Shown in pieces: positions 3,001 to 57,325 of a DNA stretch of 64,000 bases. The stretch lies in IMG/VR virus record IMGVR_UViG_3300043427_002668. One strand, given 5' to 3'. Position 1 is the first letter of the stretch, and each line of letters begins with the position of its first letter. The notes beneath the pieces are model-generated. The model searched no databases. It had not been told where the DNA came from and saw only the letters and a program-made list of their open reading frames with translations. The translations under genes and the position numbers were made by a program. This DNA comes from a virus (lineage: Duplodnaviria; Caudoviricetes).

Positions 3001-6000
3001 AAAAATGTGGCAACAATACAAACAAAGGAACCTCATGAATTAATTAGAAATGATTATGTTAATGTATCAGTTTTATCTGGGGTCAGTACATCAATTAAAT
3101 TTACATATAATAAAAAACATAGAAGAGTTTTGGTCGATCCAAAAACTTTTGTATCATCGAATGTAGATCTAATAAAAAATATTATAACAATCAATAAACA
3201 TAATTTTAAAACAGGACAGAAAGTTATTCACACTTGCACTGGATCTCCAGTGGGTGGGTTGATAAATGATAAAATTTATTTTGTAATAGTAATAGATCAG
3301 AATAAAATAAGGTTATCCGATACTTTTTATAATGCTATAAAGGCAGAACCAAATTACGTTATCTTTACGTCAACTTCATCCGGAACTATTTCAAAAATTA
3401 ATCCACAAATTGATATAGTCAAAAATTCTCAAGTAATTTTTGACTTATCGGACTCATCATTATCATTTACAAATAATTCAAAAGATTATCCCGCATTTAG
3501 TCTAGATTTTTATACAGATTCAACATTTACTAACAAGTATGAAAGTTCCGGATTAACCAAAAAATTTGATGTTACTAGATCTGGATTGGTTGGAATTGAC
3601 AGTCAGGCAAGGGTAACTCTAAATTCCACCAATTCCCCGAACATTTTATATTATAAACTAAATCCAATTAATACAAAAATTAATTCTAATGAAAATCTTG
3701 AAGTGATTATTGATACGGAAATAACAAACTCAAATAAAATTCAGATAACTGAAAGTTCATATAATGGAAGACATAAAATTGTTGGGGTTGGAAGCACTAC
3801 CTTTACATTTGATTTAGAAAAAAATCCAGAAACATCTTCGTATTCATCAGAATCTTCATCTATAAAATATTCTACAAATTCTTCCTCCGCAACTGGACAA
3901 ATAAGTAATGTTACGATTTATTCTACAAACACAAATTTAAAGTCTTTACCAAAAGTTGTTTCTTCTTCGGATATATCTAATTCTAGCGCAATATTATACG
4001 CTGAAGGATTTGGGATAGGAAGAGTAGAGCAAAAAAATATAGAAATACTAGACATTGGATTTGACTACTCTTCAGATTTTTCAATTAGACCGACCGCAAA
4101 GTTCTCATCTTTGTTTGAAATAGAATCATATTCTACTATAGAAAGTATTTCTGTTCTTTCGGTCGGTAAACAATATTCAGTAAAACCAGATTTAGTTCTA
4201 TTTGATACTTATACTAAAAAAATAATTAATGATGTTGTTCTGAATTATAATATTCAAAATCATAGTGTAACTATTCTTAAAAATACAAATAATATCACTG
4301 GAAATTATATTCCTTTAATTATACCAATAAACAACAGTAATGGAGTTGGAATAAGTTCAATTTCTTATAATTCTTCCAATAAGACGGTAACTGTTGGATT
4401 AGCAAAATCTTATAGTAGTATAAGTGACTTCCCATTTGCTGTAGGGGATAGTGTAGTTATTGAAAATGTAAGCGTTGGTATAGGATCCACATTAAAGGGA
4501 TATAATTCTTCAGAATATGAATATAGTTCATTTGAAATTATAAGTAGAGATCCAAATATTGGAGGTTCTAATGGAACTATAACCTATAGTATGAATAATT
4601 ATTTGAGCGATTCTGATATTTTAGGATCCTATGATTTGTTAAATTCTTCAGGTAAAATTATCAATACAAATAATTTACCAATCTTTGAGGTTAAAACTAA
4701 GAAAAAACAATTCTTTAAAAATGAAACTATTACATCAAATGGTTCTGCAGGAATAATTGAAAACCACGATACTGATAGAGATATTATTAAGGTCTCAACT
4801 GTTGATGATTTTTATGTGGGAAATATAGTAAAAGGATCATCCTCAAATACAATAGGAAAAATTAAAAAGATAAGTGAATTTGATCTTAATTATAATGTAT
4901 CTTCATCTACAGTTGTCAATAAAGGATGGTCTAAAGAAACTGGATTCTTAAATTATAACACTCAAAGAATACACGATAGTGATTATTATCAATATTTTTC
5001 ATATTCTGTTCAATCAAAAGTTGAATATGAAAAATGGAATGAAAATGTAAGTAAATTAACTCACACTTCTGGATTTAAAAAATTTAGTGATTTAATAGTT
5101 GATTCGGATTCAAAATATTCTGGAATGTCCAAGGATCAAAATAGCAGTGACATATCAGGAATATCAGACATCCATAGTGCTGCAAGCGTTCATTGTTACT
5201 ATGATTTTGACTTAGTAAGGGAGAATAATATTTCCTTTAATTCAGAAATAGGTTCTAATGAGATAACATTTAACTCAAAAATACTTCAGGATTACATAGA
5301 ATCTGTTGGCAATAGAGTATTAATTATTGATGATGTGTCAGATTCTTTTAGTAGTAGTCCGAGGACAAGTAAGTTTAGTATTGTGGATTCTTTTGATATT
5401 TCCGAAGATCCTTTTCTTTCTAACAGATATAAAAAGTATTTCTTTAGTATCAGAGATAAGGTATATTTGGATCCGGTTGAGGTTGGATTAATATCACTCC
5501 TACACGATGATAATTTTGGTTATTTAAATCAATATGGATTTACTAATTCGGAATATTCATTGGGAACTTTTGATTTTTCAATCAGTTCTGGATTTGGTCA
5601 ACTAAGATTTTTCCCAATTAATTTTTCTGAGCAAATTTATAGTGTCAATCTATTTTCTATCGGTTTTCCAAATGTTGCTGCTGGAGTAGGAAGCACAAAT
5701 ATTGGCAATATTGTAAATATATCTTCAAATTATGTTAATGTCAGTACAGCAAATACTACTTCGATAGTAAGTATTTCTTCTACCTATAGATCATCTAAAG
5801 TTTTGGTTCAAATTGGTTCTACAGATGGAAATTACTATGAAATAAATGAATTTACTCTTTTGAATGATGGGACAAATGTAAGTTCACTCGAATATGGAAT
5901 GTTGAATACAAATTCACTCAACTCGTATTCAACAAGTGGAATATCTACTTTTAATTTTAATATTGTTGGGGGCGATTTAAATGTTGAAATAAATCCAATA

Positions 6001-50094: not shown

Positions 50095-51038
50095 TGAGTG
50101 ACAATTTTTTGTGGGTGGAAAAGTGGAGACCAAAAAAAGTAGAGGATTGTATTCTTCCAGAGGATACTAAAAAAACTTTTTTGGACTTTATTAATAAAGG
50201 TGAAATTCCCAATCTACTATTGTCTGGTCCTCCGGGCATTGGGAAAACAACTATTGCCAAGGCACTATGCGAACAATTAGGAGCAGATTACTATGTCATC
50301 AACGGATCCGACGAAGGGCGTTTCTTGGATACTGTCAGGAACCAAGCAAAGAACTTTGCTTCGACCGTATCTCTTCAAGGAAATGGTAGGCACAAAGTCA
50401 TCATTGTGGATGAGAGTGACAACACAACCTCAGATGTACAACTCCTACTACGGGCAAATATTGAGGCATTTTATAGCAACTGCCGATTCATCTTCACTTG
50501 CAATTACAAGAACAAGATCATTGAACCTCTTCATTCCCGATGTGCCGTCATTGACTTCACCATCAAAGGGAAGCAACGGGTTCAACTTGCAGGAAGTTTC
50601 TTCCAACGTCTCCAAACGATCCTGGATCAGGAAAAGATTGAGTACGATCAAAAAGTCCTTGCTGAACTTGTATCAAAGCACTTCCCAGACTTTCGTAGGG
50701 TCCTTAACGAGTGTCAGAGGTACGCTACGGGAGGAAAAATCGACTCGGGCATTCTTGCATCTTTCTCAGACATCTCTGTAAATGAACTCGTCAAGAACCT
50801 CAAGGAGAAGAACTTCCCAGAAGTCCGTAAGTGGGTGGTCTCTAACTTGGATAACGATGCTTCTCATCTACTTCGCAGGATTTATGACGCCTCTTATGAT
50901 TGCCTTTCACCCCAATCTATCCCTGCTGCCGTTCTTGTTATTGCTAAGTATCAATACCAATGTGCGTTCGTGGCTGATCAGGAAATTAACCTCCTAGCGG
51001 CACTAACTGAAATTATGTGTGAGTGTGAATTCAAATGA
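50094..51038 (+). CDS. gp44: Clamp loader large subunit gp44
   Basis: LWVEKWRPK, GPPGIGKTT, IVDESD, LHSRC, DQEINLLA. The ATG overlaps the HNH stop. Confidence 0.96.
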   Translation: MSDNFLWVEKWRPKKVEDCILPEDTKKTFLDFINKGEIPNLLLSGPPGIGKTTIAKALCEQLGADYYVINGSDEGRFLDTVRNQAKNFASTVSLQGNGRHKVIIVDESDNTTSDVQLLLRANIEAFYSNCRFIFTCNYKNKIIEPLHSRCAVIDFTIKGKQRVQLAGSFFQRLQTILDQEKIEYDQKVLAELVSKHFPDFRRVLNECQRYATGGKIDSGILASFSDISVNELVKNLKEKNFPEVRKWVVSNLDNDASHLLRRIYDASYDCLSPQSIPAAVLVIAKYQYQCAFVADQEINLLAALTEIMCECEFK

Positions 51039-51889
51039 AATCTCTTAAGACACCCCTAAGGTATCCCGGCGGTAAGTCCCGTGCTTGTGTAAAGATGGAT
51101 CCTTACTTTCCAGATCTTCGTAACTATGATGAGTTCCGTGAACCATTTCTTGGTGGAGGATCTGTTGCAATTCATATTACAAAAAAATATCCAGATCTAA
51201 AGATTTGGGTCAATGATCTTTATCCTCCTCTTGTAATCTTCTGGCAACAACTCCAGATGTTTGGGGAAGAACTGAAAGAACATCTACTTCACTTCAAAAG
51301 TGTTTGCCCCAACCCAGAATCTGCTAGGGGTCTTTTTGATATCTCAAAGCAGATCTTAAATGATCCAAACACTGGTGATTTCGAACGTGCTGTGAGATTT
51401 TATATTGTAAATAAGTGTTCTTTTAGTGGTCTTACTGAAAGTTCTTCTTTTTCGGCACAAGCAAGTAACTCTAATTTTTCTGTTCGTGGAATTGAAAAAC
51501 TCCCCGAGTACTCTAAACTTATAGAACATTGGCGTATAACTAATTACTCCTATGATTATCTGATGGATGGAAACAAGGATGCTTTTATGTATCTCGATCC
51601 TCCTTATGATATTAAGGATAATCTCTATGGGAATAAGGGATCAATGCATAAAGGATTTGATCACGATAAGTTTGCTGCTGATTGCAATTCCAACAATATG
51701 GATATGTTGGTAAGTTATAATACGAATCAACTTGTTAAAGATCGCTTCTTAGGTGAAAAATGGAATGCTGCTGAGTTTGACCTGACTTATACGATGCGTT
51801 CTGTTGGTGAATATATGCGAGAGCAAAAACAAAGAAAGGAACTGCTACTTTTTAATTATGGAATTGAAGGATTGGTTGAACTCAATTAA
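51035..51889 (+). CDS. dam: DNA adenine methyltransferase (Dam/D12 class)
   Basis: LRYPGGKS, EPFLGGGSV, YLDPPY. Confidence 0.9.
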   Translation: MKSLKTPLRYPGGKSRACVKMDPYFPDLRNYDEFREPFLGGGSVAIHITKKYPDLKIWVNDLYPPLVIFWQQLQMFGEELKEHLLHFKSVCPNPESARGLFDISKQILNDPNTGDFERAVRFYIVNKCSFSGLTESSSFSAQASNSNFSVRGIEKLPEYSKLIEHWRITNYSYDYLMDGNKDAFMYLDPPYDIKDNLYGNKGSMHKGFDHDKFAADCNSNNMDMLVSYNTNQLVKDRFLGEKWNAAEFDLTYTMRSVGEYMREQKQRKELLLFNYGIEGLVELN

Positions 51890-53936: not shown

Positions 53937-54135
53937 AGAGGTAAGTGCTGATATTGGAGAACCTGACTGTAAGTTAGTTAAACCATTCACAGTCACTAAA
54001 GATAAAACATTAGAACCTTTCCTAATGGGTTATACTAAACAAGATACATTTATGATGAGTTCGGACAAGATTCTCACACTCTCTGATCCAACTCCAACAC
54101 TTCTTGAAAAATATGAGGATTTGATTAAGGAATGA
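53878..54135 (+). CDS. Conserved hypothetical protein, predicted Sm-like fold
   Basis: IKVLLLTNNQILITQI...LVKPFTV...EPFL; its stop overlaps the gp43 ATG. Confidence 0.7.
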   Translation: MKLIKVLLLTNNQILITQIEEVSADIGEPDCKLVKPFTVTKDKTLEPFLMGYTKQDTFMMSSDKILTLSDPTPTLLEKYEDLIKE

Positions 54136-55403
54136 GATTTTATACTAATGTTCAATTGATTGGAAATCAGTTTTTGGTTCGTGGGGTAGAAAATGGAAAA
54201 AGATTTGAAACAAGAGATGAGTTCTTCCCAACTCTTTATGTGAAAACTAAAAAAGATTCTAAATATCGAACATTAAGTGGCGAAGCAGTTGAACCAGTAA
54301 ATCCGGGAACAGTTCGTGACTGTCGTGAATTTTATAATAAGTATGAAAGTGTAGATGGATTTGAGATCTACGGAAATGACCGTTATATCTACCAATACAT
54401 TTCGGAAAAATATCCGGACGATGAAATTAAGTTTGATATCAGTAAAATCAAACTTGTAACTCTAGATATTGAGGTTGCATCAGAAGCAGGATTCCCTGAT
54501 GTAGAATCTGCATCTGAAGAAATCCTTTCTATCTCTATTCAGGATTATACAACAAAGAAGATTATTACTTGGGGAGTTAAACCATTCAATAACACCCGCA
54601 AGGATGTGACTTATCATCATTGCCCCTCTGAGTATGAACTTCTCAATCACTTCATCAATTATTGGATGGTGGATGTTCCTGATGTGATTACAGGATGGAA
54701 CATCCAGATGTATGACGTTCCTTATATCTGTAAGAGACTGAATCGTGTTCTTGGTGAGAAACTGATGAAACGGTTCTCTAACTGGGGACTTGTGACTGAG
54801 GGTGAAGTATTCATCAATGGACGCAAGCACACCACATTTGATGTAGGTGGTTTGACTCAACTTGACTATTTGGATCTTTATAAGAAATTTACTTATAAAG
54901 TTCAGGAATCTTATCGTCTAGATTATATTGCTGAAGTGGAACTGGGACAGAAAAAACTGGATCACTCTGAGTTTGATACATTCAAAGATTTCTACACCAA
55001 AGGATGGCAGAAGTTCATTGAATATAACATCATTGACGTAGAACTTGTTGACCGTCTGGAAGACAAGATGAAACTGATTGAACTTGCTCTGACGATGGCA
55101 TATGACGCAAAGGTGAATTATGCTGATGTGTTTTATCAGGTTCGTATGTGGGATAATATCATCTACACATATCTCAAGAAGAAGAACATTGTAATCCCCC
55201 CAAAGAACAAGACTAAGAAAGATGAAAAGTATGAAGGTGCTTATGTAAAAGAACCTATTTCTGGTATGTATGATTATGTTGTAAGTTTCGATTTGAACAG
55301 CCTTTATCCCCACCTTATTATGCAATACTCAATATCCCCAGAAACTCTTGTGAGTATGGATGATGTAAATAAGAGGATTGCAGAACTCGAAAGTATGCTA
55401 TAA
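54132..55403 (+). CDS. gp43: DNA polymerase gp43, N-terminal fragment (3'-5' exonuclease + motif A) with a novel C-terminal tail
   Basis: LDIE, TGWNIQMYD, YNIIDV exonuclease motifs; SFDLNSLYP motif A; ends ISPETL-VSMDDVNKRIAELESML*. Confidence 0.95.
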   Translation: MRFYTNVQLIGNQFLVRGVENGKRFETRDEFFPTLYVKTKKDSKYRTLSGEAVEPVNPGTVRDCREFYNKYESVDGFEIYGNDRYIYQYISEKYPDDEIKFDISKIKLVTLDIEVASEAGFPDVESASEEILSISIQDYTTKKIITWGVKPFNNTRKDVTYHHCPSEYELLNHFINYWMVDVPDVITGWNIQMYDVPYICKRLNRVLGEKLMKRFSNWGLVTEGEVFINGRKHTTFDVGGLTQLDYLDLYKKFTYKVQESYRLDYIAEVELGQKKLDHSEFDTFKDFYTKGWQKFIEYNIIDVELVDRLEDKMKLIELALTMAYDAKVNYADVFYQVRMWDNIIYTYLKKKNIVIPPKNKTKKDEKYEGAYVKEPISGMYDYVVSFDLNSLYPHLIMQYSISPETLVSMDDVNKRIAELESML

Positions 55404-55411
55404 TATAAATA
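55404..55411 (+). promoter_or_regulatory. T4 late promoter TATAAATA directly after the gp43-N stop; overlaps an extended -10 TGCTATAAT (55396-55404)
   Basis: Both motifs read directly from the sequence. Confidence 0.75.
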
Positions 55412-55430
55412 GGATATAGATAGTTTATAA

Positions 55431-55970
55431 ATGAAAAGAGAGTATCCTATGTATGTTTATCAATACAAAGATGATGATAAAGTTTTTTATGTTGGTATGG
55501 GGCAGGGGTATAGAATGTGGGCTCACTTAAAACCAAGTTCTTATATGCCATATGATGCAAATTATCCATCTTTCTATGGTAAAATAAAATCTATTTTTTT
55601 GTCGGGAAGAGAACCATTTGTTGAAAAGATTTTTGAGGGAACAAAAAAAGAATGTTTAGTCTTAGAAGAAGAACTTATTGAAAAGTATAAATTGATAAGT
55701 GAAGGTGGAACACTTTATAATATTTCAAAAAAAAGTGGTGGTAGAGTAAAAGGTAAATCATATCCTATGAGTGAAAATACCCGTCAAAGGTATAGAGAAA
55801 CTATGAGACAAAATAGAACTTATAAAATTGAAAGTGAAGATTTGAGAAAATTGTATATTATTGAGAATAAGACAAGGAAGCAAATTGCCGAACATTATAA
55901 TTGTAGTGAAGTATTGATTAAACAAAGATTAAAAGAGTTTGGTATTAAAAAAATTACTAAAATACTATGA
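55431..55970 (+). mobile_element. Free-standing GIY-YIG-type endonuclease inserted in the polymerase gene
   Basis: YVYQY...VFYVGMGQGYRMWAH (GIY-YIG variant), downstream E..E and LYN motifs, NUMOD3-like segment and C-terminal HTH. Confidence 0.8.
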
Positions 55971-57325
55971 ATAATAATATGTGGAAAGATGTTCGTCAAA
56001 TGTCTCCTCAAGAAATTAAAGAGGAATTGGAAGCACTTAAGAAAGTAAGAGAACTTTCTAATCAAGTGAATGTTGATAAACTTCTTAATCAAGAATTGGA
56101 TTTAGAACCTTTGCGAAAAGTCAATTTGACTATTACTGCAAACGGAGCACTTTATCGTAGAGTAAATGGTTTTCTTCCTGAACTGATGGAGAAGATCTAC
56201 AATGAACGTGTGATCTTCAAGAAGAAGATGCTTGCTGCAGAACAACAGTATGAGAAGACTAAAACAAAAGAGTTGGAAAAGGAAATTGCGCGATGTAATA
56301 ACATCCAAATGGCGAGGAAGATTCAGCTTAACTCTGCTTATGGTGCTATTGGCAATCAGTATTTCCGTTACTATAAACTAGCAAACGCTGAAGCGATTAC
56401 TCTTTCCGGTAAGGTTTCAATTCAGTGGATTATGAATAAGATGAACTCCTACATAAACAAAATTCTTAAAACAGATGGTGAAGATTATGTTATTGCTTCT
56501 GATACTGATTCTATCTATCTCAATATGGGTCCTTTGGTTGAAACTGTATTCAAAGGAAGAGAGAAAACTACTCAAGACATTGTTTCGTTCCTTGATAAGG
56601 TGTGTCAAGTGGAACTTGAAAAATATATTGAAAGTTCTTATCAAGAATTGGCGAATTATGTAAACGCTTACGATCAGAAGATGATTATGAAGCGTGAGTG
56701 TATTGCTGAACGTGGTATTTGGACTGCGAAGAAACGATACATTCTGAGTGTATGGGATAGTGAAGGTGTTCGATATGAATCACCCAAACTGAAAATCAAG
56801 GGTATTGAAGCAATCAAATCTTCTACTCCTGCTCCTTGTCGTAAGATGCTGAAAGAAGCATTTAATATTCTGATGAGTGGAAGTGAAGATGATATGATTC
56901 AGTTTATTGATGATTTCCGCAATAAATTTAAGAAATTACCACCTGAAGAAATCTCATTCCCACGTTCTGCGTCTGACGTTCAGAAATATACATCACACTC
57001 TCAAATTTATGTAAAGGGAACTCCGATTCATGTTCGTGGAGCACTTCTCTTTAATTATTATGTCAAAGAAAATAACCTGACTGGAAAATATTCTTTGATT
57101 CAGAACGGAGAAAAGATCAAGTTTGTTTACCTCAAGAAACCAAATACGATTCATGAGAATGTAATCTCATTTATTCAGGAGTTTCCCAAGGAACTGAATC
57201 TTGACAAATACATAGATTATGAATTACAATTTGAGAAAGCATTTCTAGAACCACTCAAAGTTATTCTTGATATTATTGGGTGGAATATGGAAAAGACAGT
57301 AAACCTTGATTCATTTTTTGCCTAA
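55967..57325 (+). CDS. gp43: DNA polymerase gp43, C-terminal fragment (fingers, palm, thumb) with a novel N-terminal extension
   Basis: KIQLNSAYG (motif B), SDTDSIY (motif C), KKRY, clamp-binding tail LDSFF; the ATG overlaps the endonuclease stop (ATGA). Confidence 0.95.
   Translation: MNNNMWKDVRQMSPQEIKEELEALKKVRELSNQVNVDKLLNQELDLEPLRKVNLTITANGALYRRVNGFLPELMEKIYNERVIFKKKMLAAEQQYEKTKTKELEKEIARCNNIQMARKIQLNSAYGAIGNQYFRYYKLANAEAITLSGKVSIQWIMNKMNSYINKILKTDGEDYVIASDTDSIYLNMGPLVETVFKGREKTTQDIVSFLDKVCQVELEKYIESSYQELANYVNAYDQKMIMKRECIAERGIWTAKKRYILSVWDSEGVRYESPKLKIKGIEAIKSSTPAPCRKMLKEAFNILMSGSEDDMIQFIDDFRNKFKKLPPEEISFPRSASDVQKYTSHSQIYVKGTPIHVRGALLFNYYVKENNLTGKYSLIQNGEKIKFVYLKKPNTIHENVISFIQEFPKELNLDKYIDYELQFEKAFLEPLKVILDIIGWNMEKTVNLDSFFA

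Follow-up and report, generated by a model that had tools for sequence, protein, structure and literature searches.

The locus described here raises the question of how an essential enzyme can survive being cut in two by selfish DNA. In the 64,000-nucleotide (nt) stretch that was analysed (IMG/VR virus record IMGVR_UViG_3300043427_002668, hereafter the window), gp43, the family-B DNA polymerase (PolB) of T4-like phages, is encoded in two parts, an N-half and a C-half, with a third open reading frame (ORF) of 179 amino acids (aa) lying between them in the same orientation. Our reading, to which we give a probability of about 0.75, is that gp43 is here a two-chain polymerase, broken in the loop of an α-hairpin by a homing endonuclease unit that spreads among polymerase genes.

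An initial annotation, made from the letters alone, had described gp43 as two ORFs around a GIY-YIG gene, and the ORFs, the Pfam matches and the alignment to intact gp43 agree with it (Table 1). DNA_pol_B_exo1 and the first 90 positions of DNA_pol_B fall in the N-half and the remainder of DNA_pol_B in the C-half, and the N-half body aligns with RB69 gp43 as far as residue 432, placing the break in the palm, after motif A, at about that residue. Because the break follows motif A, the catalytic aspartates would lie on different chains; with motif A on the N-half and motifs B and C on the C-half, the active site would have to assemble in trans, as had been proposed. The gap of 27 nt between the N-half and the endonuclease ORF and the ATGA overlap between that ORF and the C-half are as first described, and alignment to intact cyanophage gp43 upholds the 17 residues by which the N-half runs past SPETL and also the extra residues that open the C-half ahead of the return to polymerase sequence at VNVDK, put at about 33 and counted here as 29 (33 if the upstream ATG is used). 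The C-half start kept in relatives is the ATG at 55979 (MWKD), which gives a protein of 448 aa, and the window variant combines the ATGA overlap with an in-frame ATG four codons before MWKD; since the second methionine is absent from some relatives (P0016), the upstream ATG must be the start there.

Table 1. Features of the split gp43 locus (positions in the window)
Feature	Position	Strand	Description
gp43 N-half	54132..55403	+	423 aa and stop codon; N-terminal domain, 3'-5' exonuclease domain, first palm segment including motif A
Motif A	55290-55316	+	In N-half
N tail	55350..55400	+	17 codons past SPETL; matches first arm of hairpin insertion in intact S-CAM7-type gp43
TATAAATA, T4-type late-promoter-like box	55404..55411	+	Directly 3' of N-half stop; kept in all GIY-YIG loci; putative function
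Predicted RNA hairpin	55402..55457	+	3' arm over endonuclease start codon 55449; 5' arm overlaps late-promoter box
GIY-YIG homing endonuclease gene, free-standing	55449..55970	+	173 aa; longer ORF from 55431 (55431..55970, 179 aa)
Endonuclease catalytic domain	~55449-55733	+	Within 173-aa gene
Endonuclease helix-turn-helix DNA-binding module	55842-55952	+	C-terminal
gp43 C-half	55967..57325	+	452 aa from ATGA-overlap ATG; fingers with motif B, palm motif C (DTDS), thumb
C tail	55979..56065	+	29 codons (33 from 55967); matches loop end and second arm of hairpin insertion
Motif B	56318-56344	+	In C-half
DTDS (motif C)	56501-56512	+	In C-half
Converted tract (approximate, ~0.9 kb)	55245..56170	+	Homing cassette plus ~100 bp of co-converted flank each side

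The two tails have an unbroken counterpart in some intact polymerases. Standard intact gp43 (S-SRM01, SynMITS9220M01) has only 7 residues at the split site, and the isolate S-CAM7, whose gp43 is a single ORF of 867 aa, carries a 36-residue insertion exactly there, the start of which matches the N tail and the end the C tail. In a tblastn comparison the start of the C-half matched S-CAM7 gp43 over residues 7-67 (E 2e-14), while standard polymerases matched only from residue 30, and the S-CAM7 sequence just downstream of the insertion shows indels as in split alleles and not as in standard alleles. The same insertion is present in eight IMG/VR loci (L108-L115, to 79% identity), and across S-CAM7 and these loci intact gp43 measures 865-867 aa. 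The initial annotation, which took the tails to be new, had named in advance an insertion in intact homologues to which the tails align as evidence against its proposal, and S-CAM7-type gp43 carries such an insertion; the tails are new for the window lineage, whose nearest relatives are intact and tail-less, and not new in general.

Because 36 residues replace only 7, the ends of the insertion must lie close in space, and two helices would therefore have to run out and back. An AlphaFold2 model of one of these intact polymerases (L114), built on a 44-row alignment, shows a helix at 413-425, a loop at 426-430 and a second helix at 431-446 (predicted local distance difference test score 84-93). 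Alignment and model together place the split in the loop of a surface α-hairpin, with the tails as its two arms, and the helix-loop-helix geometry suggests two helical tails that probably pack together. To this extent the coiled-coil clasp envisaged earlier holds up; with helical lengths of about 13 and 16 residues, however, the arms are too short for an autonomous coiled coil. The N tail keeps a core motif, RIAELE, in relatives, the C tail consists of MWKD followed by an amphipathic helix, and their net charges are -2 (N) and 0 (C). There is also a weak resemblance between the two tails themselves (x-K-D near the start, then I-x-E-(E)-L-E-x-x-L), which could mean a target duplication at the original insertion, the alignment being short and ambiguous.

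Both tails are translated and under purifying selection as protein. Among split loci the ratio of non-synonymous to synonymous substitution rates (dN/dS) was 0.20 for the N tail and 0.17 for the C tail, with 0.075-0.10 for the adjoining body codons, in a comparison where synonymous sites are near saturation.

The arrangement is far from confined to the window. Protein searches returned dozens of C-halves of 448/452 aa (74-92% identical), each opening with the same tail, and dozens of N-halves of 423-427 aa ending in a tail with the RIAELE core, the tail-bearing metagenomic halves being overall 74-98% identical. About 30 other loci share the window's arrangement, and on long contigs from many samples (up to 255 kb) the order is N-half, small ORF, C-half, uvsX. 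A search of 1.84 billion representatives brought up homologous C-halves of only 35-45% identity, and the tails are kept in lineages this distant too; the split arrangement thus appears to extend well beyond cyanophages. The metagenome search suggested by the initial annotation did recover the same tails. All close homologues of the window's middle ORF sit in this same gap. The content of the gap varies between a GIY-YIG gene, an HNH gene (188 aa; PF01844, 33.8 bits) and no endonuclease at all, and the tails are alike in all three. Two distant T4-like phages are split at the window site without an endonuclease and still have an RIAELE-like motif in the N tail: L196 (1306-3953), with a 4-nt ATGA stop/start overlap, and L195 (1-1424), with a 13-nt frame overlap. 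On this comparison the split appears stable whatever fills the gap, be it GIY-YIG, HNH or nothing. In one locus (L017:1401-1856) the HNH gene is separated from the C-half by a Dam-type N6-adenine methyltransferase gene (PF05869, 106 bits). An apparent three-piece polymerase (L190) was set aside: its extra break (3390-3430) comes from one inserted base in a T run within the motif B codons, probably through a sequencing error or else a frameshift of recent date.

In the cyanophage relatives L006, L007, L193 and L194, gp43 is split, independently, at a second place, the fingers-hairpin tip. L006 (4001-6627) encodes 487 + 387 aa across a TAATG junction with no endonuclease, and L193 (976-4415) and L194 encode 490 aa, a GIY-YIG protein 64% identical to that of the window, an 88-aa ORF and 369 aa. 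This position is that of gp43A/gp43B in Aeromonas phage 44RR (locus L189); the Aeromonas proteins, cited earlier as a precedent for the window's split, are therefore a precedent for a break elsewhere in the enzyme. Both tolerated break points of gp43 are tips of helical hairpins.

Evidence for lateral spread came from comparing trees and identities along the gene. In the tree of the distal C-terminal body split and intact alleles are interspersed, the window body having 94-95% protein identity to the intact locus L011, and an approximately unbiased test on the same region rejects a single split clade (log-likelihood difference 631, p = 1.4e-29). A tree built from the 252 nt flanking the junction, without the tails, gathers the split alleles in one group (support 82), indicating a single origin for the sequence next to the break, and it sets split and hairpin-bearing intact alleles jointly apart from every standard intact allele (99); within that set the split group is sister to the hairpin-intact group, neither being nested in the other. 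Away from the break the window gene is 85-100% identical to intact L011, L009, L012 and L013, and within the tract listed in Table 1 identity to these drops to 48-83% and split alleles are closer. The window gene thus looks like an ordinary intact-type polymerase with a converted tract, a pattern that is the signature of endonuclease-driven gene conversion, mobility being read here from the population. Since the tract is closer to split alleles while the nearest relatives are intact and without tails, the arms would have arrived with the endonuclease in this lineage, and the split state can be taken to spread by homing, bringing the arms along.

The assignment of the middle ORF rests on several lines. 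In the family alignment Y4, Y14, G16, R22 and E73 are invariant and H26 and N91 nearly so, which is the GIY-YIG pattern; the family profile matches a solved GIY-YIG protein (9u75, E 1.9e-5), and PHROG 314 ('homing endonuclease') matches the window endonuclease at 1.8e-9. The top Foldseek matches of the modelled N-terminal domain are all GIY-YIG nucleases (PD-T4-3, UvrC, I-TevI), at weak values (E 0.013-0.5). The helix-turn-helix module is common to the GIY-YIG protein, where it is C-terminal, and the HNH protein, where it is N-terminal (L015:2933-3499; 54% over 41 residues, E 1.5e-9), so that a DNA-binding module has apparently been swapped between two nuclease families aimed at one site. A tblastn search with the endonuclease against 50,697 phage records gave no match, and no cultured phage in that set carries it.

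The signals around the endonuclease gene suggest how it might be kept in check. The predicted RNA hairpin over its start (-12.2 kcal/mol, z -2.75) has the same fold in L003, both of its arms are invariant among GIY-YIG loci, and the endonuclease start kept across relatives is the ATG that it covers; in HNH loci the hairpin is another one and TATAAATA lies in the loop. All six copies of TATAAATA in the window lie on the + strand (11182, 22309, 32033, 34262, 49616, 55404), and five of the six lie 25-45 nt before an ORF, positions consistent with T4-type late promoters. The start codon of I-TevI is hidden on read-through transcripts and exposed on late transcripts that begin inside the hairpin. 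The T4 logic of mobE-type control is the same, with a hairpin hiding the start on read-through transcripts and late transcripts exposing it (PMC3045599, figure 5). By analogy, the endonuclease appears to be silenced on read-through transcripts by the start-codon hairpin and expressed from a late promoter inside it. For the C-half, most loci have a GGAG within the final endonuclease codons, whichever nuclease family is present, 7 nt ahead of the MWKD start, and no terminator was found between the halves. A sigma-70-like site at 55692-55721 (TTGATA, 18 nt, TATAAT; 11/12) falls within the endonuclease coding sequence, ahead of the C-half, and might give the C-half an early transcript of its own; such sites are no commoner in the region than in shuffled sequence.

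Put together, gp43 would consist of two separately made polypeptides held to each other non-covalently. The N-half would keep the first helix (its 17-aa tail) and the C-half the second (its 29-aa tail), and the arms would most likely pack antiparallel at the break, beside a much larger palm-domain interface, while the endonuclease gene with its C-terminal helix-turn-helix would occupy the place of the hairpin loop. The mobile unit would comprise arm, stop, promoter and hairpin, endonuclease, start and arm with about 100 bp of flank on each side, and by homing into intact polymerase genes it would turn them into split genes and deliver both arms. In its strongest form the proposal is of a homing 'break-and-clasp' cassette, which brings, in a single co-converted tract, the endonuclease and both of the helical arms that the halves need to remain functional and so turns a hairpin-less intact gene into a two-gene polymerase; this we put forward tentatively, at somewhat short of even odds. 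If it is true, a mobile element carries its own protein-level antidote, doing an intein's job without splicing chemistry, and has spread through T4-like phages of many hosts.

Several observations limit the interpretation given here. Arm dN/dS is alike in contiguous forms (0.31 and 0.18) and in split forms (values above), and these values do not point to a role of the arms specific to the split state. Amino-acid conservation of the arms is higher among split alleles (0.755 vs 0.57 in contiguous ones), which could reflect recent spread and not selection. Complex prediction with the tail segments alone (N-half 385-423 with C-half 1-45) gave a score of 0.21, the mark being 0.34, a result that counts neither for nor against pairing. 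The single endonuclease sequence scores 24.5 bits with PF22945, for which the curated cut-off is 27, and the count of TATAAATA in the window is not above chance.

As to the order of events, we lean slightly towards the hairpin having preceded the split. The strongest competitor resembles what has been put forward for Aeh1 NrdA: the tails would date from the split itself, being read-through and restart sequence that came in with the endonuclease or was selected once it had inserted, and the contiguous hairpins of S-CAM7-type and some other intact polymerases would be re-fusions after endonuclease loss. This account has a substantial chance of being right, though a little below one in two. It would fit the distribution of split alleles, which are far more widespread and diverse than any single hairpin-bearing intact clade, and the N-arm motif, which is confined to split N-halves and to intact forms with a helix-loop-helix, the majority of intact forms lacking a counterpart. 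A single frameshift would fuse the endonuclease-free loci given their stop/start overlaps, and in contiguous forms the arms change about 7 times as fast as the adjoining body (non-synonymous rate 0.37-0.39 vs 0.05-0.06). The split site, however, is hypervariable in length among intact representatives (7 to 43 residues, with helix-loop-helix in several), and surface insertions of this kind are simple and arise often; a large part of the C tail, for example the SPxE(I/M) segment, also seems to match native sequence of intact relatives, in an alignment that is ambiguous, and the sister relation of the split and hairpin-intact groups in the junction tree gives no nesting that would mark the hairpins as derived from splits.

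A further alternative, that the split came first without an endonuclease, by nonsense or frameshift mutation and restart in the hairpin loop, and that endonucleases colonised the gap later, we consider unlikely. Endonuclease-free splits exist both at the window site (L196, L195) and at the fingers tip (L006), two unrelated nuclease families occupy the same gap, and for the seg-like gene of Aeromonas phage 25 such an origin is considered in Edgell's review. Empty gaps are, however, equally explained by loss of the endonuclease from a split locus, and the presence of a related GIY-YIG family at both gp43 split sites fits endonuclease-driven breakage.

That the halves are joined into a single-chain polymerase by protein trans-splicing, RNA splicing or ribosomal bypass is very improbable. 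Fractured phage genes with split inteins, a free-standing endonuclease and a hairpin upstream of it are known from similar metagenomes (PMC2677866) and give the idea its appeal. The tails of the window total 46 residues, however, far too short for an intein, and lack the terminal residues: the N tail starts with V or I (not C, S or A), and the C tail ends in NQ or SK and is followed by V or I (not C, S or T). No Rfam match to a group I intron was obtained around the endonuclease even at E up to 10, a permissive scan giving only chance snoRNA-like matches, and the 4-nt stop/start overlap of a distant relative (L196) has no room for one; the initial annotation had reached the same view on both inteins and introns. 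The tails are moreover selected as protein, and a bypass of 560 nt is unprecedented. The few 'joints' met with in DNA contigs leave the tails unconnected, have sides of only 23-32 nt and were read as other organisms. Least credible of all, with nothing found in its favour in the stretch of genome covered, is a decaying pseudogene or an assembly chimera with another polymerase doing the work, given the low dN/dS of the body codons beside the break, the intact polymerase motifs, the same architecture on long contigs from many samples and at about 30 loci, and the contigs of two independent freshwater metagenome studies that bridge both junctions (55139 to 56233/56251, 0-4 differences), which also answers the concern about chimeric assembly raised at the outset.

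The genome that carries this two-chain gp43 can be placed as that of an uncultured freshwater T4-like cyanophage. The best nucleotide matches to the window are Kyanoviridae at no more than 76-78% identity, none covering the whole stretch, and DNA near-identical to the window is present in freshwater metagenomes. The neighbours of gp43 are regA, hsp20, uvsX, gp41 and mazG. Between the clamp-loader genes and regA lies an ORF of 284 aa (51035-51889) that resembles a Dam-type DNA adenine methyltransferase (DPPY motif).

The value of the locus lies in the natural series that it offers at one polymerase site, in five states (no hairpin; contiguous hairpin; split with GIY-YIG; split with HNH; split with an empty gap), a series that lets one ask how essential enzymes survive cutting by selfish DNA. 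The population data point to a split gene state that can itself be infectious between phage genomes. Loops of helical hairpins as tolerated break points of PolB offer a usable rule for engineering split polymerases. As gp43 is a marker gene of T4-like phages, surveys and annotation that expect one ORF will miscount phages in which it is split.

In the literature searched (subscription literature lay outside the search) no description of a motif-A split of gp43 in T4-like cyanophages was found, and the 'split DNA polymerase' of cyanophage papers is the PolA of T7-like phages. Among the closest known systems is NrdA-a/mobE/NrdA-b of phage Aeh1 (PMC3045599; Friedrich et al. 2007), in which the tails, formed at endonuclease insertion, are essential for activity and whose authors predicted more cases (Crona et al. 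2011, PMC3045599). In both systems a free-standing homing endonuclease splits an essential enzyme of a T4-like phage within the catalytic core, and a gene left whole in relatives consists of two ORFs with the endonuclease between them; active-site residues lie on two chains, the first half has a C-terminal and the second an N-terminal tail, there is no splicing, and the endonuclease gene, which adjoins or overlaps the second half, is under the control, putatively so in the window, of an RNA hairpin. The enzyme and the nuclease family differ (here GIY-YIG or HNH, according to the relative), and the Aeh1 tails are oppositely charged (isoelectric points 10.4 and 3.8), unlike the gp43 tails with their net charges of -2 and 0. 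The Aeh1 tails have no known contiguous counterpart; the same is true of the gp43 tails when they are set against standard intact gp43, the nearest relatives included, but not against S-CAM7-type gp43, where they match an unbroken hairpin. Aeh1 is also a single case, whereas the gp43 split is widespread, with homing and co-conversion.

The gp43A/gp43B pair of Aeromonas phages 44RR and 25 is likewise a T4-family PolB in two cistrons, in phage 25 with a GIY-YIG (seg-like) gene between them, and the phage 25 proteins co-purify and are active (Petrov, Ratnayaka and Karam 2010, summarised in PMC2988022). The 44RR enzyme is split as 498 + 391 aa at the fingers-hairpin tip, that of the window as 423 + 448 aa after motif A, and phage 25 has in addition a group I intron, of which the window locus has none. 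Fractured genes with split inteins (Dassa et al. 2009, PMC2677866) share with the window the order of first half, hairpin, endonuclease and second half, the origin in aquatic phage metagenomes and the existence of endonuclease-free loci; their halves carry split-intein domains and are ligated, whereas here there are extensions of 17 and 29 residues without intein residues. T4 topoisomerase gp39/gp60 (mobA) also combines an endonuclease-associated split with tail-like extensions (noted by Crona et al.), in another enzyme, where no contiguous homologue of the tails has been described. Archaeal PolB enzymes that are split naturally or by design (M. thermautotrophicus PolB1/B2; Pfu at the fingers tip, PMC3061061) involve no mobile element and other break points, and they show that a family-B polymerase tolerates two chains, notably when broken at the tip of a helical hairpin. 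Set among these systems, the tailed motif-A split of gp43 has precedents in the tails of Aeh1 NrdA and in the Aeromonas gp43A/gp43B, whose break lies at another place.

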